Positions 6,202 to 28,474 of a stretch of DNA of 32,000 nucleotides are shown here, one piece after another. This DNA is from Cupriavidus necator (GTDB lineage: Bacteria > Pseudomonadota > Gammaproteobacteria > Burkholderiales > Burkholderiaceae). The translations under genes were made by a program, and so were the position numbers. The stretch's first letter is position 1, and each line of letters starts with the position of its first letter. The DNA is taken from the NCBI RefSeq assembly GCF_016127575.1, contig NZ_CP066018.1, positions 3,390,001 to 3,422,000 on the forward strand, in the 5' to 3' direction. Under the pieces are notes generated by a model, which saw only the letters and a program-made list of their open reading frames with translations, was not told the origin of the DNA and searched no databases.

Positions 6202-6215
6202 TTGATCCAGCCCAA
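6202..6215. promoter_or_regulatory. FNR-like half-degenerate box TTGAT-CCAG-CCCAA
   Basis: Lies in the 518-bp divergent groEL/hydrolase intergenic region. With the preceding T it matches the 2238-2252 site at 14 of 15 positions. Confidence 0.35.
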
Positions 6216-11875: not shown

Positions 11876-11889
11876 TTGACAGGCATCAA
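11876..11889. promoter_or_regulatory. Near-consensus FNR/FixK box TTGAC-AGGC-ATCAA
   Basis: 9/10 match to TTGAT-N4-ATCAA. It lies in the 448-bp divergent region, with centre ~120 bp upstream of the lipoprotein ATG 12003 and ~330 bp from the LRAT ATG. Confidence 0.55.
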
Positions 11890-12002
11890 CCCGTATGTCC
11901 GGCCGGACGCTACCTTCCGGTAACCGAAGATCACCGCCACTACGGGCATTTCAATGCGTTGTCGGAGGGACGAAACTGGAGATTACGTGGAGCTTTGTAC
12001 GC

Positions 12003-12476
12003 ATGCTCTCGTCCCTGATGATTGCCGTAGCTGCTGCGGGTTGTGCGTTCCGCTATGGGCAAGCCGGATCATACTTGCAGCCAATGGCCGAATATGGCGT
12101 CTCGTATGTGTCGGGCGGGGACAGCGAAGCCGGCATGGACGCGATGCTCGCCATCGCGGACCGCTTCAACGTACGTCTGACCATGGTGGACGCCGCACGC
12201 GGGGACCCGCTGCCGGATGCTGCCATCCTCGTGTCCAGTCAGGACGGGCGCTCGATATTGCATGCGAGCGCAACCGGGCCGATGTTCTATCTCCGGCTTC
12301 CCACGGGCGTCTATTGGCTGGCAATTGGTTATCAGGGCTGGGTCCGGACCCGCGATATCGCCGTCGACGGCCAGGCACTCGACATGACGTTTCGCCTGCC
12401 CGTGAGGACGCTGGAGGACGACTGGCTGCTTTGCAGCTCGCCGCGCGGCAACGTCGCGGTTACCGCCGTCTGGTGA
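12003..12476 (+). CDS. Putative lipoprotein with carboxypeptidase-regulatory-like beta-sandwich
   Basis: Track ORF 11895..12476 trimmed to ATG 12003 (GGAG ~10 nt upstream). Lipobox-like IAVAAAGC. The pattern MFYLRLPTGVYWLAIGYQGWVRTRDIAV...MTFRL resembles CarboxypepD_reg-type domains. The n-region has no positive charge, so the start and lipoprotein status are uncertain. Confidence 0.5.
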   Translation: MLSSLMIAVAAAGCAFRYGQAGSYLQPMAEYGVSYVSGGDSEAGMDAMLAIADRFNVRLTMVDAARGDPLPDAAILVSSQDGRSILHASATGPMFYLRLPTGVYWLAIGYQGWVRTRDIAVDGQALDMTFRLPVRTLEDDWLLCSSPRGNVAVTAVW

Positions 12477-12521: not shown

Positions 12522-14822
12522 TCACTCCGTGGGCGCATCTTCGCGCAGCGCATGGAACAGCTCGTCCTCCTGCGCGCAGTGCAGCCGCAATACGGCCTCG
12601 AGCCCGTAGAGCAGCCGCTGGTACTCCCTGACCCTGCCGGCGTCTGGCCCATCCGGCGGTGAGTCGTCCGCCATCCGCTGCAGTAGCCGGATCACCCGGA
12701 AGATCTCGCGGTGCATCGCGCTCATCGCCGCCAGCGGATCCTCGCCTCCGACCAGCAGCGCGAGTTGCGGATAGAGCTGCGCGTCATCGTGCTGTTCGTG
12801 GGGCAAAAGTGTTCCGCTGAGGGATGCGCACAAGCGGCGCAGTTCCGTGCCCGCGGCGTGGCCAGGCATGGCTGGCAACCTGTCCGCGAGGCTGCGGATC
12901 TGTTCCATCAGCGGCGCCAGCGCGGCGTGCTCCTGGTTCAGGCGCTCGGCGTCGGCCGTGGACAGGCGTTCCGCCGGCACCGACGGGTCGGCGCGCAGGG
13001 CGCGCAGCGCATTGGCAATGACCAGCACATCGATGACCTCCTGCAGCATGGCGCCGGCCAGTGGCGGCAGGTAGCCGAACGCGGCGACCGCCATCGCGAC
13101 GAACGACAGGCCCATGCCGGCCATGGCGCTTTGCACGGCCAGCCGGCGCGACCGGCGGGCGATGCGCACCGCGTCCACCAGCCGGTCAAGCCGGTCCACC
13201 AGCAGCACGACATCCGCGGCTTCCGACGATGCCGCGGCACCTCGTGCGCCCATGGCCACGCCGACGTCCGCGGCGGCCAGCGCCGGTGCATCGTTCACGC
13301 CGTCGCCCACCATCAGCACAGTGCCGTCGTGGCGCGCCGCCTCGATCGCGGCAAGCTTCTGCGAGGGGGTGAGGTTGGCATGGACCTCGGTCACGCCCAG
13401 CATCGCGCCGACGGTCTCGGCGACGTCGAGCCGGTCTCCCGTGAGCATGGCCAGGCGCCGTATGCCCGCCTTGCGCAGCAAGCGCAACGCGCGCGGGGTG
13501 TCCATGCGAATCAGGTCCACGAACTGCAGTGCCCCAACCAGCACGCCGTCGACGGTGACCAGCGAGACCGAGGCGCCTTCGAAGGCCGCGCGCTGCAACA
13601 TGGCCTGGCACCACGGTGGCCCGGCATCGCCGCCGCCGGCAAAGGCGGGCGATCCCACCGCCACCACGTGCTCGCCAACCCGCCCGGCAATGCCAGCACC
13701 GGCGGTCTCGGTCACGCCTGACGGCAGGTCCAGGGCCAGGCCTCGCTCGCGCGCCGCGGTCGTGATGGCTTCGGCGACAACATGCCCGGAGGCCTGGGAC
13801 AGCGAAGCGGCGACGCGCAGCACGTCGGGCGCCGGCCATCCGGGCGCGCTCTCGATGGCCGCCAGGCGGGCCCTTCCGCCCGTCAGCGTCCCGGTCTTGT
13901 CGAAGAAGAGGATGCTCGCCTGCGACAACCTTTCAAGCGCGCCGCCGCCCTTGACCAGCACGCCGCGCCCGGCGCAACGCGACACCCCGGACACAATCGC
14001 CACCGGAACGGCCAGGATCAACGGACAAGGGGTGGCGACCACCAGCACCGCCAGCGCCCGCGCGAGTTCACCACTGGCAAGCCAGGCAAGCCCGGCGACG
14101 AGCAGGGTGACAGGCACCAGCCACAGTGCATAACGGTCGGCCAACCGCGCCGCGGGCGGGCGCTCCGCGCGGGCGGTGCGCACCAGCCTGGCGATGCCGG
14201 CGAAGGTGCTGTCTGCCGCGGTGGTCGCTGCCACCATCTCGAACGGGGTGCCGGCGTTCAGCACACTGCTGCGCACGGTCTCGCCAGGGAGTCGCTGCCG
14301 TGGCAGCGACTCGCCAGTCAGGGCAGATTCGTCCAGCGTCGCCTGGCCCAGCAATGCGCCGTCCACGGGTACGACTTCGCCATGCCGGACCAACAGGCGA
14401 TCCCCCGGACTGACCACATCGAGGGAAACCGCGCGCCATTCTCCGTCCTCGAAGCGGTTGGCGGACTGCGGGGCGCGGCTGAGCAGGGCGGACATCTCCC
14501 GCTCGGAACGGGCCTGCGCATAGTTCTCAATGGCCCTGCCGCTCTCGATCATCAGGGCCAGTACGGCAGCCGCGAGGAATTCGCCAAGCGCCAGCGCCAG
14601 CCCGATCGCCAGCAGCGCCAGGACATCGACGCCCGCTTCCTTCCGGCGCAGCGACCGCACGATGGCGACGATCAGCGCGCCGGCGACGACCAGCGCGCCA
14701 ACCGCCCAAGCGAGCCTCGCGGCGAGCGCTTCGCCGAAGGCAAAAAGCAGCAAGCCAGCGCCCAGCGTGCCGGCCGCGACTGGCAGCAAGCCGAGGTCAA
14801 ACTTGCGAAACCCGATGTGCAT
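12522..14822 (-). CDS. P1B-5-type heavy-metal P-type ATPase with C-terminal hemerythrin (HHE) domain
   Basis: [17 protein letters not shown], and transmembrane TPCP (VVATPCPLILAVP) instead of CPC. There is no N-terminal metal-binding domain. The last ~150 aa carry His/Glu hemerythrin motifs (NQEHAAL, LPHEQHDD, MHREIF, LHCAQEDELFH). Start placed at ATG 14822 (CAGGGGA upstream); the track start 14933 is a GTG without an RBS. Confidence 0.85.
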   Translation of the reverse strand: MHIGFRKFDLGLLPVAAGTLGAGLLLFAFGEALAARLAWAVGALVVAGALIVAIVRSLRRKEAGVDVLALLAIGLALALGEFLAAAVLALMIESGRAIENYAQARSEREMSALLSRAPQSANRFEDGEWRAVSLDVVSPGDRLLVRHGEVVPVDGALLGQATLDESALTGESLPRQRLPGETVRSSVLNAGTPFEMVAATTAADSTFAGIARLVRTARAERPPAARLADRYALWLVPVTLLVAGLAWLASGELARALAVLVVATPCPLILAVPVAIVSGVSRCAGRGVLVKGGGALERLSQASILFFDKTGTLTGGRARLAAIESAPGWPAPDVLRVAASLSQASGHVVAEAITTAARERGLALDLPSGVTETAGAGIAGRVGEHVVAVGSPAFAGGGDAGPPWCQAMLQRAAFEGASVSLVTVDGVLVGALQFVDLIRMDTPRALRLLRKAGIRRLAMLTGDRLDVAETVGAMLGVTEVHANLTPSQKLAAIEAARHDGTVLMVGDGVNDAPALAAADVGVAMGARGAAASSEAADVVLLVDRLDRLVDAVRIARRSRRLAVQSAMAGMGLSFVAMAVAAFGYLPPLAGAMLQEVIDVLVIANALRALRADPSVPAERLSTADAERLNQEHAALAPLMEQIRSLADRLPAMPGHAAGTELRRLCASLSGTLLPHEQHDDAQLYPQLALLVGGEDPLAAMSAMHREIFRVIRLLQRMADDSPPDGPDAGRVREYQRLLYGLEAVLRLHCAQEDELFHALREDAPTE

Positions 14823-15246
14823 GGCGAACCCGATCCCCTGCGTAACTGGCGCCGGTTGCTGGGATACTCCCGCTGATGCCTTCAGGCGATCGCAGATCCT
14901 GCCGCGCTGGCGGCTGCGCAATCCCGGCTGCACGCCGAATCAGGCACTGTGTAATGGTGATGTTAGTCCAACAGGCACCGGGCCGATAATAGCCTCGGCC
15001 GCAGGCAGGGCGCGCCAGCCAGCCCTGGAGATAGTCGATGGCTGCAGGGGCCGCGGTTCGCGGCGCCACGGAGATGATTCGGCACGGCGCGGACCCGCAG
15101 TGGCTGTCGGCGGTACTGCCGTATTCGCTCACTCCTTGATGCACGCGGCGATTACGGCGCATTTTCGGTTCAAATTGCGCTTTGGCCGGTGCCGCCCTAT
15201 ATATTTGGGGGGCGAGAAGCACTCTCAGACAATCATCGTCCATTCC

Positions 15247-16971
15247 ATGAGCAACCCTTTGGCGCCCGCGGGCAAGGTGCAGCCTTCGTCCGAACGTTCT
15301 CACTCCCTTGCCATGGCGATTGGCAGTGTGACGGTCGTTCTCGTCCTCGCGGGGGGATGCTTCTTGATGGCTACCGTCGAATGGTATCGGCAGTTCCTGG
15401 CGCCGTTGGTGCTCTTGACGGGCGCAGGCATCGGGCTCGCCGTGGGACTTTACTGGAACCGGTTGAGGAAGCTTACAGGGAGTAGTGATATCCAACGCGT
15501 GGCGGATAGCGAAGCCCAGTTGGCGGGGATCATCCGATCTTCGATGGAAGCGATCATCACCGTGGACGGTGACCAGCGCGTCGTACTGTTCAATCCCATG
15601 GCAGAAACGCTATTCGCCTGGCCGGCCGAACTTGCAATCGGGCGCTCCCTGAGCGACTTCATTCCCCACCGCTTTCGGGCCGCCCATGCAGAGCATGTGC
15701 GCCGGTTTGGGATCACGGGCGTTTCGGACCGCGAGATGGGACTCCAACGGGCGCTGTGCGCCATGCGTCGGGACGGAAGCGAGTTCCCTATCGAAGCATC
15801 CATTTCACAGATCTCTGTCGGCGAGGCCAAGTTATACACTGTGATGCTGCGCGATATCACCGAACGCGTGCGTGCTGAGGAAGCCCTGCACCGAAGCCTT
15901 CAGCTTGTGAAGGAAAGCGAGGCGCGATTGGCGGGAATTATCCGCTCCTCCATGGAAGCGATCATCACCGTGGACAATGAACAACGCGTAGTGCTGTTCA
16001 ACCCAATGGCGGAGACGTTGTTCGCCTGGCCCGCCGAACTCGCGATTGGCCGCCCCCTCGGCGACTTCATTCCCGAACGCTACCGGGCCGCTCATGAGGA
16101 GCACGTGCGTCGGTTTGGGATCACGGGCGTATCGGATCGTCAGATGGGACGTCAACGGGCACTCTACGCTCTGCGTCGTGACGGCACTGAATTCCCTATC
16201 GAAGCATCCATCTCGCAAACGGCCCACGAAGGCACGAAGCTATATACCGTGATGCTGCGTGATATCACGGAGCGGGCACGCGCGGAGGCGGCCCTGCGCC
16301 GCTCACGGGAAGAACTGCAACAGCTTTCAGATGGGATACTCGCTGCCCGCGAGGAGGAGAGGCGCCGCATTGCACGCGAGCTGCACGATGACCTGGGCCA
16401 GCGCCTGAGCGCGCTTAAGATGGACATGGCTATGCTCGGCGCGGACGTCGATGAGGGCCGTGACACAGCAGGACTGCTAGACGAGATTGGTGCCATAAAC
16501 GGCGTCATCGACAATACTGTTGCCTCGGTCCGACGCATTGCCAGTGACCTACGGCCGGCCTTGCTGGACGAGTTGGGAATGATTCCTGCCATTGAGTGGT
16601 TGGCCGATGATTTTGCCAACCGGTACGGATTGGCGGTGAGCGTGGACGGTGCCGAGGCTGACGTCCCCGCGCAGACGGCAATCGCCATGTTCCGCATTGT
16701 CCAGGAGGCATTGAGCAATGTCGTCCGGCATGCCGACGCGACCACCGTGCATATTCAGCTCACCCAGTCAGAGGGCCAACTTGTGTTGCGGGTGCAAGAC
16801 AATGGGGTGGGCTGGGACAAGGTCTCCTCCGCAAGCGGGCCACGCAAATCGCTGGGACTCCTTGGCATCCGGGAGCGGGCACGCCTTCTGGGTGGCAGCT
16901 TCACCATCGACAGCACTCCCGGCAAGGGCTTTTGCCTAATCGTGCAAATTCCCCACGAAAGGGTGGCCTGA
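15247..16971 (+). CDS. Membrane-anchored sensor histidine kinase: 2 TM, tandem FixL-like PAS, HisKA_3, HATPase_c
   Basis: The 813-aa track ORF is trimmed to ATG 15247, because the upstream part is antisense to the ATPase gene. Two hydrophobic helices with a ~7-aa loop. H-box ELHDDLGQRLSALK is NarX/DevS-type HisKA_3. N/G boxes: EALSNVVRHA, DNGVGW, GLLGIRERA. No RBS is obvious, so the start is approximate. Confidence 0.85.
   Translation: MSNPLAPAGKVQPSSERSHSLAMAIGSVTVVLVLAGGCFLMATVEWYRQFLAPLVLLTGAGIGLAVGLYWNRLRKLTGSSDIQRVADSEAQLAGIIRSSMEAIITVDGDQRVVLFNPMAETLFAWPAELAIGRSLSDFIPHRFRAAHAEHVRRFGITGVSDREMGLQRALCAMRRDGSEFPIEASISQISVGEAKLYTVMLRDITERVRAEEALHRSLQLVKESEARLAGIIRSSMEAIITVDNEQRVVLFNPMAETLFAWPAELAIGRPLGDFIPERYRAAHEEHVRRFGITGVSDRQMGRQRALYALRRDGTEFPIEASISQTAHEGTKLYTVMLRDITERARAEAALRRSREELQQLSDGILAAREEERRRIARELHDDLGQRLSALKMDMAMLGADVDEGRDTAGLLDEIGAINGVIDNTVASVRRIASDLRPALLDELGMIPAIEWLADDFANRYGLAVSVDGAEADVPAQTAIAMFRIVQEALSNVVRHADATTVHIQLTQSEGQLVLRVQDNGVGWDKVSSASGPRKSLGLLGIRERARLLGGSFTIDSTPGKGFCLIVQIPHERVA
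15511..16308 (+). repeat. Tandem in-frame duplication (period 408 bp) encoding the two PAS modules
   Basis: Copy 1 starts ~15511 and copy 2 ~15919. By my hand alignment 104 of 125 aligned residues are identical (83%). Identical 20-24 nt runs include atggaagcgatcatcaccgtggac, cggtttgggatcacgggcgt and ttccctatcgaagcatccat. Confidence 0.85.
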
Positions 16972-17281: not shown

Positions 17282-17842
17282 TCATCCGCCTGGCGCCATC
17301 TTTCCACCCATGCCCGGACCCATCCCCGGCCCCATGCCCGGACCCATGCCCGGACCCATGCCCATGCCCGGGCCCATGCCTTGGTCGTTGGCCATCGTCT
17401 GCATCATTTCCTGCATGAACGCCATGTGACTACCCGCCATGTCTTGGCACATCTGCATTTGATTTGATGGGGCGTTTCCCTTGGCGACTCTCTTGCCAGG
17501 AGCCATACGAGCAGGGCCGCCCATTTTCATCATGTCCTTTTGCATGATGGCCATTGCATCTTGCATGACCTGATGGCGTTCAGCCAAGAGGGCCTGACGC
17601 TCCTCCGGCGTTTTGGCACGCGAAAGCCGCTCTCTGATGGCACGCAGGTGGGCAACCTGGGCGTCCAGCTTTGCATCGCTGGAAACTCCGGGAGTTACGA
17701 CCGGAGCCTTATCTTGCCGCTTTTCAGGATGGTGCTGCTCATGCTCAATGCCGGTAGCCGGCGACGCCGGGAAAGCTGCTGGCGCCCACGCTAGCACGGC
17801 GGCCGCAGTGATAAGGGTAGAGAGGCGATGGTTGGTGGACAT
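17282..17842 (-). CDS. Secreted Met-rich protein with C-terminal (GPGM)n repeat; possible periplasmic Cu(I)/metal-binding or CpxP/Spy/ZraP-like protein
   Basis: 186 aa. RBS AGGAGGA. Signal peptide LITAAAVLAWAPAAFPA|SP. I counted 23 Met in the C-terminal ~105 residues. Tail: GMGPGMGMGPGMGPGMGPGMGPGMGGKM. The function is inferred from composition only. Confidence 0.7.
   Translation of the reverse strand: MSTNHRLSTLITAAAVLAWAPAAFPASPATGIEHEQHHPEKRQDKAPVVTPGVSSDAKLDAQVAHLRAIRERLSRAKTPEERQALLAERHQVMQDAMAIMQKDMMKMGGPARMAPGKRVAKGNAPSNQMQMCQDMAGSHMAFMQEMMQTMANDQGMGPGMGMGPGMGPGMGPGMGPGMGGKMAPGG
17309..17380 (-). repeat. In-frame 12-nt coding microsatellite (CATGCCCGGNCC on the + strand = GPGM), five units plus two 6-nt half-units
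   Basis: Units at 17309-20, 17321-32, 17333-44, 17345-56 and 17363-74. Half-units catgcc at 17357-62 and 17375-80. Confidence 0.85.
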
Positions 17843-17907: not shown

Positions 17908-17921
17908 TTGATTGGGATCAA
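17908..17921. promoter_or_regulatory. Perfect FNR/FixK consensus box TTGAT-TGGG-ATCAA
   Basis: 10/10 match. Centre is 72.5 bp upstream of the Met-rich protein ATG (17842). This fits a class II (-41.5) activator site with a ~30-nt leader. Confidence 0.75.
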
Positions 17922-20755: not shown

Positions 20756-21559
20756 TCACTTCGAAATCGCCCCGCTCAGAAGATGTTCCTCTGCATAAGG
20801 AAACACAACTTCCGGATTAGGGCGAATCAGCTCAGCGTCCTTGTGCGCATAGTGAAGGCGGGTCAGTAGATCCTTGATGACGCTGAGGCGTGCGACATGC
20901 TTGTCGTCGGCGCGCACGACGTTCCATGGCACGATGTCGCTGGTTCGAGCAAACATCTCGTTCCGTGCCTTACTGTATTTCTTCCAAAGCGATACCGCTT
21001 GTTCGTCAATGGGGCTGACTTTCCACTGTTTTAGCGGGTCCCGGCGGCGCTCTTCGATGCGCTTCTTCTGTTCGGCCTTGCTGATGTCAAGGTAGTACTT
21101 GATAAGACGAATTCCGGAACGCACGAGCATCCGTTCGAACTCTGGGACACTTGCCATGAACTCCTCATGCTCGTCCTTGGTGCAGAAGCCCATCACATGT
21201 TCCACACCGGCCCGGTTGTACCAACTGCGATTGAAAAGGGTGAACTCGCCGGCCGCAGGCAGCTCGGCCGCATAGCGGCGGAAGTACCAGGAGCCTCGGT
21301 CACGGTCGGATGGCTTCCCCAGTGCGACGACGCGCGTTTCACGCGGACTGAGGTGTTCGACAATGCGCTTGATGGTCCCATCCTTCCCAGACGCATCCCT
21401 TCCCTCAAAAATCACCAGAATCCGGTCGCTGCAGGAAATGAAGTGCTTCTGTAGTTTGACCAGCTCGATTTGAAGCAGGTGGAGATTCTCCTCATAGCTG
21501 TCATGGGAGAGGGCGCTTGCCTCGGATGGAGCCGTCTTGCTACTTGTCTTCATTTTCAT
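20756..21559 (-). CDS. ppk2: Polyphosphate kinase 2 (single-domain PPK2)
   Basis: 267 aa. RBS GGGAGGTG. Walker-A-like FEGRDASGKDGTIK, followed by FNRSWYNRAGVEHVMGF and the lid region. Confidence 0.9.
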   Translation of the reverse strand: MKMKTSSKTAPSEASALSHDSYEENLHLLQIELVKLQKHFISCSDRILVIFEGRDASGKDGTIKRIVEHLSPRETRVVALGKPSDRDRGSWYFRRYAAELPAAGEFTLFNRSWYNRAGVEHVMGFCTKDEHEEFMASVPEFERMLVRSGIRLIKYYLDISKAEQKKRIEERRRDPLKQWKVSPIDEQAVSLWKKYSKARNEMFARTSDIVPWNVVRADDKHVARLSVIKDLLTRLHYAHKDAELIRPNPEVVFPYAEEHLLSGAISK

Positions 21560-21990
21560 GGTTCACCTCCCTTGAGTCGGGCGCATCGGGTGGGAAAGGG
21601 TGGGGCTTTCCAGGTGAAAGCGGGGTAACTTTTTCGTTGAGCAACAGCTCCAGCGAAGGGCGGTCTACGACCTCCTGTTCGAGCAGTAGCTTTGCCAGCG
21701 CGTCTGGCTTGTGCCGGTTTGCCAGCAATGTTTGCTTCACCCGCTGACTGGCGTCGCCCAGAATCGTCCGCACTTCTGCATCAATGATTTGCGCAGTACT
21801 CTCGCTGTACTCTTTGCGTTGCCGAGGCATTGGCAGCTTCGAGGTCCTGGACCAGATTGGGGTCGTTGACCCGAAGCGTGGAGAAGGGGTGGTCTCCCTT
21901 TCCCTGGCGCAACATCTCTTCGACCTGTGGCTTGGGGAGCAGAGTCTCAATGCCAGTGGTGACACGAGCTCGTAAAGAGCTGTGGCGCAA
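21540..21990 (-). pseudogene. ftsH: C-terminal remnant of an FtsH-family protease (frameshifted, N-terminally truncated)
   Basis: One frame reads RKEYSESTAQIIDAEVRTILGDASQRVKQTLLANRHKPDALAKLLLEQEVVDRPSLELLL, the FtsH C-terminal helical region (compare ..SDETARIIDQEV...L...ETID). An upstream piece, VTTG...GDHPFSTL...PNLVQDL, is in another frame. The AAA and zinc-protease cores are absent. Confidence 0.6.
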
Positions 21991-22020
21991 GGACTTGGAG
22001 TCATATCGCCATTCTTGGTA

Positions 22021-22287
22021 TCAGGTCTCTCCTTGAAGGCTGTTGTGTAACCATGCAAAGAATGCCCCGGCAGCGAAGAACCACACCGCAAACACAAAGG
22101 CTGGATAGATGATGGACCACCACGATACTGATTCGCCGGTCTGAAGGCGCCGGAAATCGAGCCCGTGAAAGAGCGCGTTCATGAAATTCATGAAGGGCTC
22201 AGGAAGAACCATCCAGACGAGCGTGCATAGAACGTAGAACAGCACGACCGTGGCGGATAGCGTCAAACCAGTCTTGAAGGGTTTCAT
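22021..22287 (-). CDS. Small multi-pass membrane protein (resembles what RefSeq labels DUF5676; recalled from memory)
   Basis: Track ORF trimmed to ATG 22287 (GGAGG 6 nt upstream). 88 aa with hydrophobic segments LTLSATVVLFYVLCTLVWMVL and IIYPAFVFAVWFFAAGAFFAW. Confidence 0.6.
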   Translation of the reverse strand: MKPFKTGLTLSATVVLFYVLCTLVWMVLPEPFMNFMNALFHGLDFRRLQTGESVSWWSIIYPAFVFAVWFFAAGAFFAWLHNSLQGET

Positions 22288-22323
22288 GGCAGCCTCCGGG
22301 TGCAAGGAAGATGACGGTTGAAT

Positions 22324-22992
22324 TCAATGAGGACGCGTCCGCGGAACATCTCGGGCTGAGATATGCGGAATGAACGCTGGTGTCTTTTGGCGATATTCCT
22401 CATATGCTTGCCCGAACTCGGCCAGTGCGTCCTGCTCCTCCGACTTGGCCAGCCGAACATACATCCAGACCAGGATGGGGAACATCACCAGAGTGACTAT
22501 CGTCGGCCACTGCAGCAGGAAGCCGAACATAATCAGGACGAACGCGACATACTGGGGGTGCCTCATGCGCGCATAGAGACCAGTGGTCGCCAGGCGGTGC
22601 TGCTGCTGGGCCAGGTACAGAATGCGCCAGGCGGAAGACAGCATGATGAAGCCGCCAAAAATCAAGATGTCGCTGGCGATGTGAAATGGCCCCAGGTGCG
22701 GGTTGCCCCTCCAGCCGAAAATCATCTCCGGAAGATGACCGGCATCATGCGAGAGGAAGTCGATTCCCGGGAATTTCGCCGAAAGCCACGGTAGCAGGAG
22801 ATAGATACTCAGGGGGATGCCATACATCTCTGTAAAGAGCGCCACAATGAACGCGGAGAACGCGCCAAACGAGCGCCAGTCGCGCTGGGTCTTCGGCTTG
22901 GTGAAGCTGAAGGCGAAGATGATGAAGACAGCTGAGTTGATAATGACCAGCGACCAGAGACCGTAGCTGGATTGTGTTTCGGGTTGCATCAT
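22324..22992 (-). CDS. Integral-membrane ICMT/PEMT-family SAM-dependent methyltransferase
   Basis: 222 aa, multi-pass. Family motif TGLYARMRHPQYVAF, followed by EEQDALAEFGQAYEEYRQKTPAFIP. The start overlaps the DUF2933 stop (ATGATG/TGA at 22987-22992). Confidence 0.8.
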   Translation of the reverse strand: MMQPETQSSYGLWSLVIINSAVFIIFAFSFTKPKTQRDWRSFGAFSAFIVALFTEMYGIPLSIYLLLPWLSAKFPGIDFLSHDAGHLPEMIFGWRGNPHLGPFHIASDILIFGGFIMLSSAWRILYLAQQQHRLATTGLYARMRHPQYVAFVLIMFGFLLQWPTIVTLVMFPILVWMYVRLAKSEEQDALAEFGQAYEEYRQKTPAFIPHISARDVPRTRPH

Positions 22993-23249
22993 CGCTCTCC
23001 TTTGGCGTTCGTGTCCTTGGTGGCGTCATCCGGTCCGTGACCGTGTCGATGTCCACCGTGCATGAAGATGTGCATTAAGGGGCAGGCGGCCAGCAGAAGA
23101 AATGGCAGGAACTGAATGACGTGTGCCCGGTGTTCAGTCCATAGGAAGTAGGCAATCACCAGCAGAAAGCCAATCATGACCAGCTTGGACCTGGCCACGG
23201 TGCGCAGTGCGTCGCCAGGCCGCTCATGACCGTTGTGGTCGTGGTTCAT
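22989..23249 (-). CDS. DUF2933-like His-rich small membrane protein
   Basis: 86 aa. N-terminal MNHDHNGHE, two TM helices, then ACPLMHIFMHGGHRHGHG. Confidence 0.7.
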   Translation of the reverse strand: MNHDHNGHERPGDALRTVARSKLVMIGFLLVIAYFLWTEHRAHVIQFLPFLLLAACPLMHIFMHGGHRHGHGPDDATKDTNAKGER

Positions 23250-23439
23250 GTTTTCCTCCTATAAAGCGAACGCCGTACCGCCTGGCAGCAGCCATGGTGC
23301 CGATGACGTAGGTGTATGTATCTCGCTTGGTCTTGCTGAAAAACTGTTCGCCGTTCCGCCAAGCAGGAGCCAAGTGAGACTCTGTGATAACCAGTTCATA
23401 GACCCTCTCTTCAACCTTTGTCTTGGCGTTCACGCTCAA
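23224..23439 (-). CDS. Questionable 71-aa ORF (TTG start, no RBS), unknown function
   Basis: It fills the only gap in the array and overlaps both neighbours (29 and 26 nt). Its composition is protein-like ([42 protein letters not shown]), unlike shadow ORFs. No credible start signal was found. Confidence 0.25.
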   Translation of the reverse strand: MSVNAKTKVEERVYELVITESHLAPAWRNGEQFFSKTKRDTYTYVIGTMAAARRYGVRFIGGKHEPRPQRS

Positions 23440-23626
23440 CTGCGTTTCGTATATCGCGCTCGCACTGTCGCGAAAGGCGAAGACTCAACCACACCACAAC
23501 GACCGGACAGGACAGCAGGAGTAGGCCAACCAGTATGGTGAACGGTGTCAGCCCAAACCGGTAGACGATAGCTGCCGCGAGTAGCATTGCAAAGGCAGCG
23601 CAAATCCATGCCACCGGGTGTTTCAT
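23411..23626 (-). CDS. Small two-TM membrane protein translationally coupled to the Cu ATPase
   Basis: 71 aa. Its ATG overlaps the ATPase stop (ATGA, 23623-23626). Two hydrophobic helices, then a charged tail [19 protein letters not shown]. Confidence 0.55.
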
Positions 23627-26106
23627 CTCGCCTCCAGGCTGGCAATTCTGGCGCCAAGTCGTACACGCTTCAGCAATGCGGAGTTGGCTACCACACTCAA
23701 TGAGGACAGTGCCATTGCTGCTGCGGCAAAGATGGGGTTCAGGAGTCCAAGTGCGGCGATAGGGATGCCGATGGTGTTGTAGATGAACGCCCAGAAGAGG
23801 TTCTGTTTGATTTTGCGCATCGTCGCGCGGGACAGCTCAATGGCGGCAACCACGTCACGCACGTCATCGCGAATGAGGATGATGCTCCCAGTTTCCTTCG
23901 CGACATCCGAGCCTGAGCCGATGGCAATGCCGATGTCCGCTGCGGCAAGCGCCGGTGCGTCATTGACGCCGTCTCCCACCATGGCCACGACCTCCCCTTG
24001 CTTCTGTAATGCGTGAATGGTCTCGACCTTGTCTTCCGGCATCACCTCGGCAATGACATGCTCAATGCCAACCTGCCGGCCGATTGCCTCGGCGGTGCGG
24101 CGGTTGTCACCGCTCAGTAGCACAACCTTGATGGCGCGCGCCTTCAATGCCGCGATTGCCTCGCTCGCTTCCGGTTTCACAGTGTCAGCCACGGCCACTA
24201 CGCCGAGCAATTGTGTGCCGGCGCCGACCAGCATGGCTGTCTTGCCATCGGCCTCGAGCTTCCCGAGTACAGATTCGGCCGATTCGATTGGGATGCCTTG
24301 GCGTGCAAAGAGACGCCGGTTGCCCAGCCAGACTTGCTGACCGTCGACGAGGCCCTGAATGCCCATGCCAGACAATGCGCTGATGCTGGCTGCCTTGGGA
24401 ATGGTGAGCGCGCGATACTGTGCGGCGCGCACGATGGCTTCGCCCAAAGGGTGCTCGGACCCGGCTTCCACAGCGGCAGCAAGAGTCAGCAGGTCAGATT
24501 TCTCTCGCCCAGAAAGGGGGATGACATCGGTCAAGGTCGGCTCTCCGCGCGTAATCGTCCCGGTCTTGTCAAAGACAACCGCGGTGAGCTTCTCGGCCCG
24601 CTCCAGCACTTCACCGCCGCGTATCAGGATGCCGTTGTCCGCGCCCTTGCCGACGCCGACCATCAGCGCTGCTGGCGTGGCGACGCCTAGCGCGCAGGGG
24701 CAGGAGATAATCAGAACAGCCACGAATGCGAGCAGTCCCTGCGGAAAATGACCGGCGACGGTCCATCCCACTAATGCCAGCATCGCGACCGAAACAACCG
24801 CAGGTACGAAGTAGCCGGTGACCTGGTCCGCCAGTCTCTGAATCTGCGCGGTGCTGGCCTGGGCGTCCTCGACCATCCTGATAATCTGAGCGAGAGCGGT
24901 GTCCGCTCCGATTTTTGTGGCCTGGAAGGTGAAGGCGCCACTGCGGTTTAGCGTGCCGCCAATGACAGCGGCACCAGGCTTCTTTTCCACGGGCATCGAC
25001 TCGCCGGTCAGCATCGATTCATCGACACTGGATTGGCCATCGATAACCTTGCCATCAGTGGGAATCTTCTCGCCGGGGCGTACAACGACCGCTTCGCCCA
25101 CCATGATGCTTTCAGCCGGGATTTCCACCTCCGTCCCGTCGCGAAGCACGTGAGCGACGGCGGGGCGCAGGTCGAGCAGGCGTCGAACAGCGGCGGAGGA
25201 TTTCTTCTTGATGATTTCCTCCATGTATTTCCCCAGCAGCACGAAGGCGATAATGACCGCCGACACCTCAAAGTAGACGTCTCGCTCTTCGACCTTGACG
25301 GGCAGCCAGGACGGAAAGAACAGCACTACTACGCTGTAGAAGTAGGCGACGGACGTCCCCAGGGCGATGAGGAAGTCCATATTGATATTGCGCGTCCGGA
25401 TGGCGTTCCATGCGCCCTTGTAGAAGCTCCAGCCGCCAATGAACTGGACCGGCGTGACGAGAAGGAATAGCCACATCCCCCACGTGAACCAAGGCAGGGC
25501 GGGAATCGGGGCCCAAGTCACGAGCGTCGCGCCGGCTGCCAGTGCCAGGAAGGCGCCAGCCCGCAGCACCGCCAGCGCGAGCACGCCCGTGAGCGCAATG
25601 GTCACGCGCGTCTTCATGGCTTTCAACTCGCTCTCTGGCGACTCGAAGGTCCGAAGGCAGCTCTCGCTGCAGAAGTAGTACTTGCGGTTGCCACGCTCGG
25701 CGGAGAGGGCCGTAGCCTTGTCCACCATCATTCCGCAAATAGGGTCCTTGGCGAGTTGCTTGGCGGCGTGGGAAGCAAGCGCGGGCGTCGCCGCAGGGAT
25801 AGGAGCGACGCCGGGTGGGCTAGGACTGCGGGAGGGCCCAGCCGAGCTACGCCTATCAACGGGGTGAAGAACATATTTCGCCGGGTTGGCTAGGAAAACC
25901 TGCTCACAGTGTGGAGAGCAGAACCAGTATCGCTTCTGGTCGAGCTCCGTGCTGGTAGCGGCCTCCCGTGGGGAGATCTCCATGCCACAGACCGGGTCAC
26001 GCACGAGCTGCTGCGAGGCGGCCGGGCCTGCGGCGGCCGTTGGAGCTGCCTGGGCTTCGGTGAGGCCGTAACTCCCCCCATTAGGGGTGGTGGACTTGGT
26101 CGGCAT
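23623..26106 (-). CDS. Cu(I)/Ag(I)-type P1B-1 P-type ATPase with two N-terminal YHS/TRASH domains
   Basis: 827 aa. RBS AAGGAGAGG. Two copies of DP(V/I)CGM...(Y/W)FCS..C. Transmembrane CPC (IISCPCALG), YN (FIYNTIGIP) and [12 protein letters not shown] signature. DKTGTIT and [10 protein letters not shown] present. No HMA (CxxC) domain. Confidence 0.9.
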
Positions 26107-26188
26107 TCCATCCTCTCCTTGGGGCTATTAAGAGGGGCTGCAGCGCATAAATTACATTTTCATTCTGGGTGACCAGTCGATTTGCTTC

Positions 26189-26202
26189 TTGATTTCAATC
26201 AA
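26189..26202. promoter_or_regulatory. Perfect FNR/FixK consensus box TTGAT-TTCA-ATCAA
   Basis: 10/10 match. Centre is 89.5 bp upstream of the ATPase ATG (26106), within the 240-bp gap after the SAM synthetase gene. Confidence 0.75.
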
Positions 26203-26346
26203 GCGTTCATGGGTGGTCGGGGGTGCGGTGGGTGCCGATTCAGGAATGAATGTCGAACGCCGCATGACGTATGTGTTTGAAGGCTGGGAAGCCGCTCGGC
26301 CAGCCGATGCCGGCGCCGAGGTTGCTTTGCTCCCCATACACCGGGC

Positions 26347-27531
26347 CTAGAAGACCGCTACCGTGCCATAGACCAGCTCATTGACCAAGGCAGGAAGCTG
26401 CGCCAGCTGTAGCGTCGCGAGTTCACGAACTTGCTGCTCCTGGGCGCTCGAGAGGCCGCGCTCGGCCACGACATCAATGGCAAACAGTTGGGGCTGGTCG
26501 ATGGGGCGTCCAATTCCGGAGAGAAGCCGGACGACGACTTCATCCGCGCCATCCACGCTTGCCTGAATATGAGAGGCTAACCGGTGGGCGAGCACGTTGT
26601 AGAGCTTGCCGACATGTGACGCCGGGTTCTTGCCCGCTGCGGCCTCCAGCGACATTGGCCGATAGGGGGTAATCAGGCCATTGACCCGGTTTCCGCGGCC
26701 GACCTGGCCGTCATCACCATGCTCAGCACTTAAGCCAGTGACCGTCAGGTAAATCCCGCTTTCGTCGCAAGCATCCCGGCGATCGAGGGTATTGATTGCA
26801 ATCTCACAGTCGGTGCCGATGTGCTCGGCCAGATACGACCCAATCCGGCCCTTGAGGATGAAGTACTCATCGACGCCTTGGACGCATCGGTCGACAAAGG
26901 CCAGCGCAAGAGTGAGACGGTGATGCGCACCCAGCCGACTCCCCATCACCTTGTAATCGAGGCCCGCCGCCTCAAACATTCCCCTGTCGGCACGTGAGCG
27001 CAGAAGGTCGGCAATCAACAGCACCGCTCTTTCAAGCGATGAGAGTGGCGCATAGCCGACGCCAAAGGATGTGTCATTGGACAGCGAAAGAGACGCTGCA
27101 TTGGTCACGCGCCGGAGGTTCGGGGCCGAGGGGCGGAGGATTGGCTCGATCCGGATGTCATTGCCAATGTCGCCCAAGGATGTCGCCAGGTACTCGCGAA
27201 TGGCCTGCTCGACAACTAGCTCGGCCTTGGCCGACGGAAGTTCGGTAACAGGGCCGGATACTATCAACCGCGTTGAGCGCAGCACTTTGCCACCGCCGAA
27301 CTTTGGCGCGCTCATGCCGCCGATGAGTAGCGCCTTGTCCAGATTGAAGTGCTGGACTGCGCCATAGGCTTCGAAGTATGCGCGGCACAAGGCGCGAGCC
27401 GCAGCTTCGACAGCCCCATCGCATAGGCTATCGGGATGTCCGATGCCCTTGTGCTCGCACATTTCCGTCTGCTCACCTCGCCATGACGGCCCACGCGAGA
27501 TAGCAATCGCTATGTTCTCCATGATGGTCAT
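26347..27531 (-). CDS. Archaeal-type S-adenosylmethionine synthetase (methionine adenosyltransferase, MJ1208/PF01941-like)
   Basis: 394 aa. RBS AAGGGGG. Motif EHKGIGHPDSLCDG near the N-terminus, with length and overall pattern as in archaeal-type MAT. It does not resemble bacterial MetK. Confidence 0.75.
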   Translation of the reverse strand: MTIMENIAIAISRGPSWRGEQTEMCEHKGIGHPDSLCDGAVEAAARALCRAYFEAYGAVQHFNLDKALLIGGMSAPKFGGGKVLRSTRLIVSGPVTELPSAKAELVVEQAIREYLATSLGDIGNDIRIEPILRPSAPNLRRVTNAASLSLSNDTSFGVGYAPLSSLERAVLLIADLLRSRADRGMFEAAGLDYKVMGSRLGAHHRLTLALAFVDRCVQGVDEYFILKGRIGSYLAEHIGTDCEIAINTLDRRDACDESGIYLTVTGLSAEHGDDGQVGRGNRVNGLITPYRPMSLEAAAGKNPASHVGKLYNVLAHRLASHIQASVDGADEVVVRLLSGIGRPIDQPQLFAIDVVAERGLSSAQEQQVRELATLQLAQLPALVNELVYGTVAVF

Positions 27532-27630
27532 CTCGAGCCCCCTTCACGCCGTCGCCCTGTAGCCATTCTATGTAGCCGCGGTAGGTCAAGTCGCGAAGGT
27601 TCGGTTCCCGACTCGGGTTGCCAGGAGTTG

Positions 27631-27644
27631 TTGACGCGAATCAA
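27631..27644. promoter_or_regulatory. Near-consensus FNR/FixK box TTGAC-GCGA-ATCAA
   Basis: 9/10 match. Centre is 106.5 bp upstream of the SAM synthetase ATG (27531) and 46.5 bp upstream of the ATG (27684) of the decayed formate/nitrite transporter gene. A weaker box, TTGCC-TAGC-ATCAA, follows at 27660-27673. Confidence 0.6.
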
Positions 27645-27683
27645 GCACGGTTTTTCGCGTTGCCTAGCATCAATGCTGAAAAT

Positions 27684-28143
27684 ATGACTTTCGATTGCCA
27701 ACTAAGTCGCGGCAGGGCCGCTGGTGCACTATTAGGCTCATGTGGCCTGGCATTTGAAGGTTGCGAAAACGCCGAGCGGGTGCAAACCGTCGGGTGGCCA
27801 AGGCGCGCCTGCCGCTGCTGCAAATGGCGATGCTTGGGCATACTGGCCGGTGCTTTCATCGGGCGGGGAGCGCTGAATTCCGTACGGGTTGCCAGCGACC
27901 CAAGTTTAGGGTTCGCCACCAGCTGCGTGATTGGTAGCTAGCCTGGTGTTTTCATTAGGGCTGCTGCTGGTAGTGCCCGGCGCCAAGCTATTCACTGCCA
28001 ACAACCTATTAGTGATGGCCTGGGCCGACCGGCGAATCAGCAGCTACGAGCTGCTGCGCAATTTTGGGGTTGTGAGCTTGACCAACTTTGCCGAAGCGGC
28101 TGGACTCGCATTGCTGGTTGGTTGCCAGGGTATCCGGTGCTGA
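27684..28143 (+). pseudogene. Formate/nitrite transporter (FocA/NirC family) pseudogene: multiple frameshifts, in-frame stop, 3' truncated
   Basis: Consecutive FNT blocks sit in different frames. The pieces are KARLPLLQMAMLG, then LGILAGAFIGRGAL..SDPSLGF ending at TAG 27939. The last piece is LVFSLGLLLVVPGAKLFTANNLLVMAWADRRISSYELLRNFGVVSLTNFAEAAGLALLV. Confidence 0.6.
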
Positions 28144-28243
28144 ACAACGGACTAGTGGCTGAGCGCTTGGAGCGCATTGCCGTTGCCAATTGCGCCCCAA
28201 GCCCCCAGCCGTTCATTGGTGTGCGCATCCGTACAGATGCCAG

Positions 28244-28474
28244 TTACACCCTGGAACTGTCAATGGTGCTGCCGCCGGGGATGGATCCGTGGCCACCCGC
28301 TGCAAGGGCTGATCGGCTTTCAGTCTTTGCCCCGACAATCGCTCTATCTCCGGCGCCTGCCTCGGTCAGCTGGTCGATCAATGCGACCTTGATCTCGGTC
28401 GGCACTAACGCCTTCTCGTTCTGGAGGCCATCGCGTGGACCGACTTCCACGATCTTGACTTTGTCTGGTTGCAT
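28244..28474 (-). pseudogene. liuE: Hydroxymethylglutaryl-CoA lyase truncated after ~40 codons
   Basis: Intact RBS (GGGGAGG) and N-terminus [40 protein letters not shown]. Similarity ends at ~28355, and the remaining 36 codons to the stop are unrelated. A full-length enzyme is ~300 aa. Confidence 0.65.

Follow-up and report, generated by a model that had tools for sequence, protein, structure and literature searches.

A putative orphaned FNR-type promoter of a deleted lemA operon beside the archaeal-type SAM synthetase gene of Cupriavidus necator H16

Which gene does an FNR-type box serve, or did it once serve, when it lies between a SAM synthetase gene and the remains of a transporter gene? 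The question arises in a window of Cupriavidus necator (the window is the whole stretch of DNA analyzed, 32,000 nucleotides). There, the 14-mer TTGACGCGAATCAA had been predicted from the sequence as an FNR box between the methionine adenosyltransferase gene (MAT) and a dead gene of the formate/nitrite transporter family (FNT), and the site is borne out as a 9/10 match to TTGAT-N4-ATCAA (Table 1). Two roles had been proposed for it: a regulatory fossil that outlived its gene, the FNT gene, or a site serving MAT, which would place SAM synthesis under oxygen control. We favor a third reading, to which we give a probability of about 0.8: the box would be the orphaned class-II FNR/Anr-type promoter of a deleted lemA–ygcG–TPM operon. 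A fossil it would then be, as originally predicted, but one of lemA–ygcG–TPM and not of the FNT gene. We observe the sequence match, its enrichment in the window, the junction downstream, the promoter geometry, and the co-occurrence with lemA. The exact MAT protein is also encoded on CP039287.1, which we take to be chromosome 1 of C. necator H16, and the window is called H16 below.

Table 1. Features around the box (window positions)
Feature	Position	Strand	Remarks
Perfect FNR-type box TTGATTTCAATCAA of the YHS-Cu-ATPase promoter	26189..26202	.	
Archaeal-type methionine adenosyltransferase (SAM synthetase), 394 aa	26347..27531	-	PF01941, E = 1.7e-129
-10-like TAGAAT of the putative own promoter of MAT	27565..27570	-	first T 39 nt upstream of the MAT ATG
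FNR/Anr-type inverted repeat TTGACGCGAATCAA	27631..27644	.	putative activator site of the former lemA promoter
-10-like hexamer TAGCAT of the putative former lemA promoter	27665..27670	+	20 nt after the box
lemA 5' leader remnant	27671..27768	+	includes a chance ATG at 27684; ends at the rearrangement junction
FNT remnant	27769..28143	+	about residues 15-136 of ~270; at least two frameshifts; without own start codon or promoter
HMG-CoA lyase N-terminal stub	28244..28474	-	right edge of the rearranged region; adjoins mccA

The box and the lemA promoters of related genomes

Over 27532-27768, the window shares about 90% identity with Cupriavidus sp. KK10, C. necator N-1, and Ralstonia pickettii RAL3, in which this DNA forms the spacer between MAT and lemA. 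Past the point equivalent to the junction, these three genomes read GGAGG-N8-GTG followed by the signal peptide of a LemA lipoprotein (…LTGCGYNTIQ…), and in relatives the genes for YgcG and a TPM-domain protein come after lemA. Because the segment is orthologous to that of relatives that have lemA and no FNT gene there, 27532-27768 is read as the former MAT–lemA spacer together with the lemA leader. We did not find lemA in the window by tblastn.

In the sense of lemA, the box of the relatives is TTGAGGCAAATCAA, within the pattern TTGAG(G/C)nnAATCAA, 21-22 nt, TAnnnT (the hexamer being TAGCAT, TAGGAT, TACGAT, or TACAGT), and the spacer sequence between box and hexamer has diverged. In H16, the spacer is N20, with 2 nt lost relative to the N22 of the relatives. 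Every Cupriavidus/Ralstonia MAT–lemA locus with the box has box-N21/22-TAnnnT (N20 in H16) directed away from MAT; a TAnnnT toward MAT at the correct distance occurs in one locus only (L003), alongside the one directed to lemA. Among Burkholderiales loci, a box with two mismatches or fewer was found in 15 lemA promoters, 11 of which also have TAnnnT at N21-22 (as in KK10, Cupriavidus sp. P-10, C. pinatubonensis, L003, L005, L093, and plasmids of R. insidiosa and R. pickettii). In R. solanacearum, B. stagnalis, Caballeronia zhejiangensis, and P. phytofirmans, where lemA has no MAT nearby, box and hexamer are still present 100-150 nt before lemA, spaced by N21; R. solanacearum CFBP2957 has a perfect box, TTGATGCGTATCAA, followed by N21-TAGCAT. 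The box is, in short, conserved in orthologous promoters amid diverging flanks.

A weaker second box, TTGCCTAGCATCAA (27660-27673), had been noted 29 nt farther on, counted from start to start. Its position is correct, and it matches 8/10; as an FNR site it does not hold. Outside the H16/RAL3 pair, its counterparts in the relatives do not resemble an FNR site (CTGCCTAGCATAAA in the KK10 group), and in RAL3 a partial match is kept (CTGCCTGGCATCAA). The hexamer TAGCAT lies inside TTGCCTAGCATCAA, and the second box is therefore better taken as the -10 region than as another FNR site.

This arrangement is that of class-II promoters activated by FNR in E. coli, Anr in Pseudomonas, and FixK in rhizobia, with TTGAT-N4-ATCAA in place of a -35 element, its center about 40-41 nt before the predicted start, and the -10 element 20-22 nt after the box. 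The H16 site differs from them in being orphaned, with the operon that it drove deleted, and in being a case read from sequence alone. Judged from the predicted -10 elements, a class-II placement (center 41.5 ± 4 nt before the start, -10 about 22 nt after the box) is found on the lemA side and is missing on the MAT side. In 19 of 23 FNR-activated promoters of E. coli, the site is at -41.5 ± 4, and in one it is near -60.5 (PMC3688515). The shortening of the spacer from N22 to N20 was considered as a change that disabled the promoter; we make no firm claim, E. coli sites within ± 4 of -41.5 being able to activate (PMC3688515).

In related Burkholderiales, then, the box would be the activator site of a class-II promoter of the FNR/Anr/FixK type (CRP family) for the lemA–ygcG–TPM operon, which is divergent from the archaeal-type MAT gene. 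At low oxygen, an FNR-family dimer would occupy TTGAn-N4-nTCAA, centered about 40-41 nt upstream of the start, and would bring RNA polymerase to the TAnnnT -10 element 21-22 nt downstream. FNR-type protein binding, oxygen response, and start sites are all predicted here from the sequence pattern. In H16, the operon would have been lost by a deletion or rearrangement that left the lemA leader joined, beyond 27768, to an internal point of an FNT gene (about codon 15); this gene has decayed since. The surviving box and TAGCAT, 20 nt apart after the loss of 2 bp, would make up an orphan promoter that reads only into junk; it may remain active, in which case transcripts of the FNT remnant are predicted to start near 27677. 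A literature search for a start-site map of H16, ChIP or binding data, or an anaerobic transcriptome covering these genes gave nothing usable.

The MAT side

Does the box follow MAT or lemA from genome to genome? It is intact in all seven loci that have an intact lemA beside MAT, although the mobility of the module makes these relatives less than fully independent as samples. In five of the seven (L002, L003, L081, L094, L095), MAT is intact as well; in Cupriavidus sp. IDO (L005), MAT is matched in two overlapping segments and is probably frameshifted, and in copy 2 of C. oxalaticus X32 (L093) it is a pseudogene. Conversely, the box is broken or absent in four loci with an intact MAT, so that it has not been retained wherever MAT has been. 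In R. pickettii RAL3 (L001), lemA is truncated at residue 79 and the box has a 1-bp deletion in its spacer; in C. necator N-1 (L083), the N-terminus of lemA is out of frame and the box has become TTGTT (8/10); in C. necator C39 (L082), lemA is absent and the box is deleted (27632-27702 missing); in copy 1 of C. oxalaticus X32 (L084), both lemA and box are absent. The two copies of the MAT region in X32 lie on one plasmid and have decayed reciprocally; this two-copy state is a natural experiment, in which the box appears to accompany lemA and not MAT. Two loci with an intact MAT keep the box without an intact lemA: the H16 window itself (lemA absent, box 9/10, spacer 2 nt shorter) and Cupriavidus sp. 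P-10 (L085; lemA rearranged, box intact). In these two, the box may therefore have been retained for another role.

The distances between box and MAT are variable. From the box center to the MAT ATG (27531), the distance is 106.5 nt, as originally stated; in relatives, it is 94.5, 105.5, 106.5, 143.5, 177.5, or 182.5 nt. The hexamer TAGAAT, on the other hand, occurs 35-45 nt before the MAT ATG in 11/11 Cupriavidus/Ralstonia loci with or without the box (L082, L084, and L001 lack an intact one), with an offset of mostly 38-39 nt (35 nt in L084, 45 nt in L001), and it is also at -39 on the R. insidiosa plasmid (L094). MAT would be transcribed from this promoter of its own, with a start predicted near 27558 on the minus strand. 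Since TAGAAT keeps its offset of about 39 nt from the ATG while the box does not, the box positions implied by taking TAGAAT as -12 to -7 are -67.5, -78.5, -79.5, -116.5, -151.5, and -155.5, with no common helix face and no fixed distance to the MAT core promoter. The 14-mer that stands where a class-II box for MAT should be, at the right distance before TAGAAT, is ACCGAACCTTCGCG, which is not FNR-like. Some divergent promoters do have a common CRP/FNR site, with one palindrome between two divergent genes as here; unlike in those systems, only the lemA side has a fixed class-II spacing, and on the MAT side the spacing differs by as much as 88 nt, unphased helically.

It is, therefore, unlikely that the box is shared, that is, that it also activates the divergent MAT gene from an upstream class-I-like position, so that this accessory SAM synthetase would be induced at low oxygen. 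The box does lie within the upstream region of MAT (at about -79.5 in H16 if TAGAAT is -12 to -7), MAT is inside a gene block with FNR-type boxes, and the persistence of the H16 and P-10 boxes would be accommodated. In addition, no sigma-70 -35/-10 pair was found for MAT, which may therefore need an activator: a -35/-10 scan of 26000-28300 gave no complete sigma-70 promoter, which fits activator-dependent promoters and is uninformative on MAT. Against this stand the range of box-to-MAT distances out of helical register, the retention of MAT and TAGAAT in the four genomes whose box is broken or gone, and the rarity of FNR sites at -61.5 or farther upstream in activated promoters (PMC3688515). 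The proposal of oxygen control over SAM synthesis through this box has accordingly found no comparative support, the class-II geometry pointing away from MAT. A related idea, that the orphan box has been kept in order to give the accessory archaeal-type MAT a low-oxygen boost from upstream, with SAM for the co-clustered ICMT-like methyltransferase, within a mobile FNR-controlled metal/hypoxia module, is speculative and quite improbable.

Beyond a few Proteobacteria, the nearest relatives of this MAT in a genome collection are archaeal (Thorarchaeota and others, with about 40% identity). This suggests that the gene was acquired horizontally long ago and is accessory in role. An Rfam scan of the whole window gave no riboswitch or sRNA, and there is no SAM riboswitch before MAT. 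The literature on archaeal-type MAT in bacteria was uninformative.

Other boxes in the window and the dead FNT gene

Boxes with one mismatch or none occur four times in the window (at 11876, 17908, 26189, and 27631), all of them intergenic, between ORFs taken as genes, and alongside likely regulon mates. The number expected by chance is 0.31 (mean of dinucleotide-preserving shuffles), and four were reached in 0/100 shuffles. That TTGACGCGAATCAA is a chance match that was never functional is, in consequence, very unlikely: its one mismatch, and a function in H16 that is predicted from sequence, would allow it, but the box and its spacing to the -10 element have been kept as flanks and spacers diverged across the lemA promoters of Cupriavidus, Ralstonia, Burkholderia, Caballeronia, and Paraburkholderia.

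The perfect box TTGATTTCAATCAA, downstream of MAT, is a contrast case of a maintained site. It is followed, on the minus strand, by N21 and CAGAAT (26167-26162) and is 89.5 nt upstream of the ATG (26106) of the gene for a YHS-domain Cu-type ATPase. In 11/11 Cupriavidus/Ralstonia loci, this box is kept with no or one mismatch, and an A-2/T-6 hexamer follows at N21.

The two other boxes (11876-11889 and 17908-17921) are each followed by N21-TACCTT. The first is oriented rightward, to ORF 11895-12476, and the second leftward, to a secreted-looking protein of 186 aa of no known family (17282-17842, minus strand). A near-identical motif, TTGATCCA(T/G)CCCAA, has two intergenic copies, one preceding a nitroreductase gene and one separating a GroEL-like from a hydrolase gene (2239-2252 and 6202-6215); it may be a variant site of the CRP/FNR family. 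No gene for an FNR-family regulator was found among the window ORFs scanned against Pfam.

The dead FNT gene is real, as originally predicted. PF01226 matches 27931-28143, and more FNT-like pieces occur upstream of this match in two other frames; the gene has at least two frameshifts and is truncated at both ends. In an alignment with an annotated FNT of Leisingera and the nearest database homologs, where the typical N-terminus is M-x-E-I-F-G-F-D-A-Y-S-P-K-E-I-A-E-R-V-E-T-V-G-V-A-K-A-R-L-P-L-L, the first FNT-derived base is 27769, at about codon 15 of intact FNTs, and homology ends near residue 136 of ~270. The FNT fragment was joined to the lemA leader by a rearrangement at 27768/27769. Many database homologs are only 137-148 aa long, and a half-size FNT family was considered and rejected: P0001 and P0010 are frameshift-split genes, with a second FNT fragment directly after each, and other genes of these metagenome contigs are fragmented as well.

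The box had been linked to the FNT gene through the ATG at 27684, 46.5 nt from the box center (27637.5). The arithmetic is right, but this ATG is not the FNT start: it is a chance ATG, since FNT-derived DNA begins only at 27769 and the relatives have no ATG there (they read CCTG or CCAG), and it is without a ribosome-binding site. The position had been called the expected one for a focA/nirC-type gene by measuring from the ATG; the class-II distance rule of FNR is counted from the transcription start. The proposed comparison with relatives led elsewhere, the upstream DNA being MAT–lemA spacer, with no FNT gene adjoining MAT in any of 80 related loci. FNT genes of the focA/nirC type are often FNR targets, and the general expectation of a box is reasonable, because such a box, followed by N21-TATGCT, belongs to the closest FNT homolog found (L105, 69% identity), 70.5 nt before the ATG; the portion of the FNT gene that would carry such a box is gone from H16. 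The link between box and FNT gene is refuted, the remnant having neither a start codon nor a promoter of its own and the box lying neither upstream of an FNT start codon nor in FNT DNA. Although the box is on the same strand as the remnant and upstream of it, its being the fossil promoter site of the FNT gene can be practically discounted, contradicted as it already is by the junction, with box and ATG 27684 within DNA orthologous to the spacer of genomes without an FNT gene there.

Farther right, beside intact mccA and mccB, the HMG-CoA lyase gene retains about its first 40 codons (28355-28474, inside ORF 28244-28474). The stub has a weak PF00682 match over residues 5-40, and blastn over 28355-28459 matches annotated hydroxymethylglutaryl-CoA lyase genes. 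The lyase was cut by the rearrangement of the FNT junction, and the leucine-degradation cluster at this site is therefore without it. In another locus (L106), the FNT gene adjoins Usp, CBS, and APH/AAA_33 genes; an APH/AAA_33 gene is also present in the window.

The gene island and the meaning of the relic

By its Pfam content, the window lies in a patchy island of low-oxygen-type genes. It contains two nitroreductases, a BON-domain protein, a GroEL-like protein, an SDR, an APH/AAA_33 kinase, a hemerythrin-fused P-type ATPase, a PAS/HisKA_3 sensor kinase, PPK2, an FtsH fragment, an ICMT-like methyltransferase, and the YHS-domain Cu-type ATPase, and third-position GC at about 11-28 kb is below that of mccA and mccB on the flanks. 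The P-type ATPase (12522-14933, minus strand) has a C-terminal hemerythrin (HHE) domain, a candidate sensor of O2/NO or iron, and adjoins the PAS/HisKA_3 sensor kinase (14530-16971). The match of ORF 21540-22097 (minus strand) to the FtsH peptidase M41 domain is confined to the C-terminal part of the domain, and the ORF looks like a further gene fragment.

A known system with similar traits is the low-oxygen-activated (lxa) locus of B. cenocepacia, where an Anr/FNR-like TGA-N6-TCA motif occurs at 17 intergenic points (PMC3721108). Both are large sets of patchily conserved stress and metabolism genes with a repeated motif of the TGA-N6-TCA type. Common functions are a nitroreductase, a BON 'phospholipid-binding' protein, a cation ATPase, an FtsH-type protease, acetoacetyl-CoA-reductase-like SDRs, and two-component sensors (a PAS kinase in H16). 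On the other hand, genus and gene order differ, H16 has in addition the archaeal-type MAT, the ICMT-like methyltransferase, and PPK2, and no gene for a universal stress protein is among the scanned ORFs of the H16 window. The comparison is one of gene content at the level of Pfam and of at least four boxes, the H16 block being known from its genes alone.

Part of the island recurs on Burkholderiales plasmids and chromids (window 20756-27531; loci L094-L103), with FNR-type boxes in divergent promoter regions. The members of this set are PPK2, DUF5676, YHS or YHS-Cu-ATPase, DUF2933, the ICMT-like methyltransferase, the archaeal-type MAT, and LemA–YgcG–TPM, and the set is apparently under FNR control.

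The value of the result is mainly corrective: the box does not imply a link between oxygen and SAM synthesis, and the FNT gene has no bearing on it. The box is probably a new instance of the well-known class-II FNR-type promoter in a gene island of the hypoxia type, surviving as a relic, and the case would show a promoter outliving its operon after a deletion. The recurrent set of LemA–YgcG–TPM, PPK2, YHS-Cu-ATPase, ICMT-like methyltransferase, and MAT could merit a separate study of its physiology.
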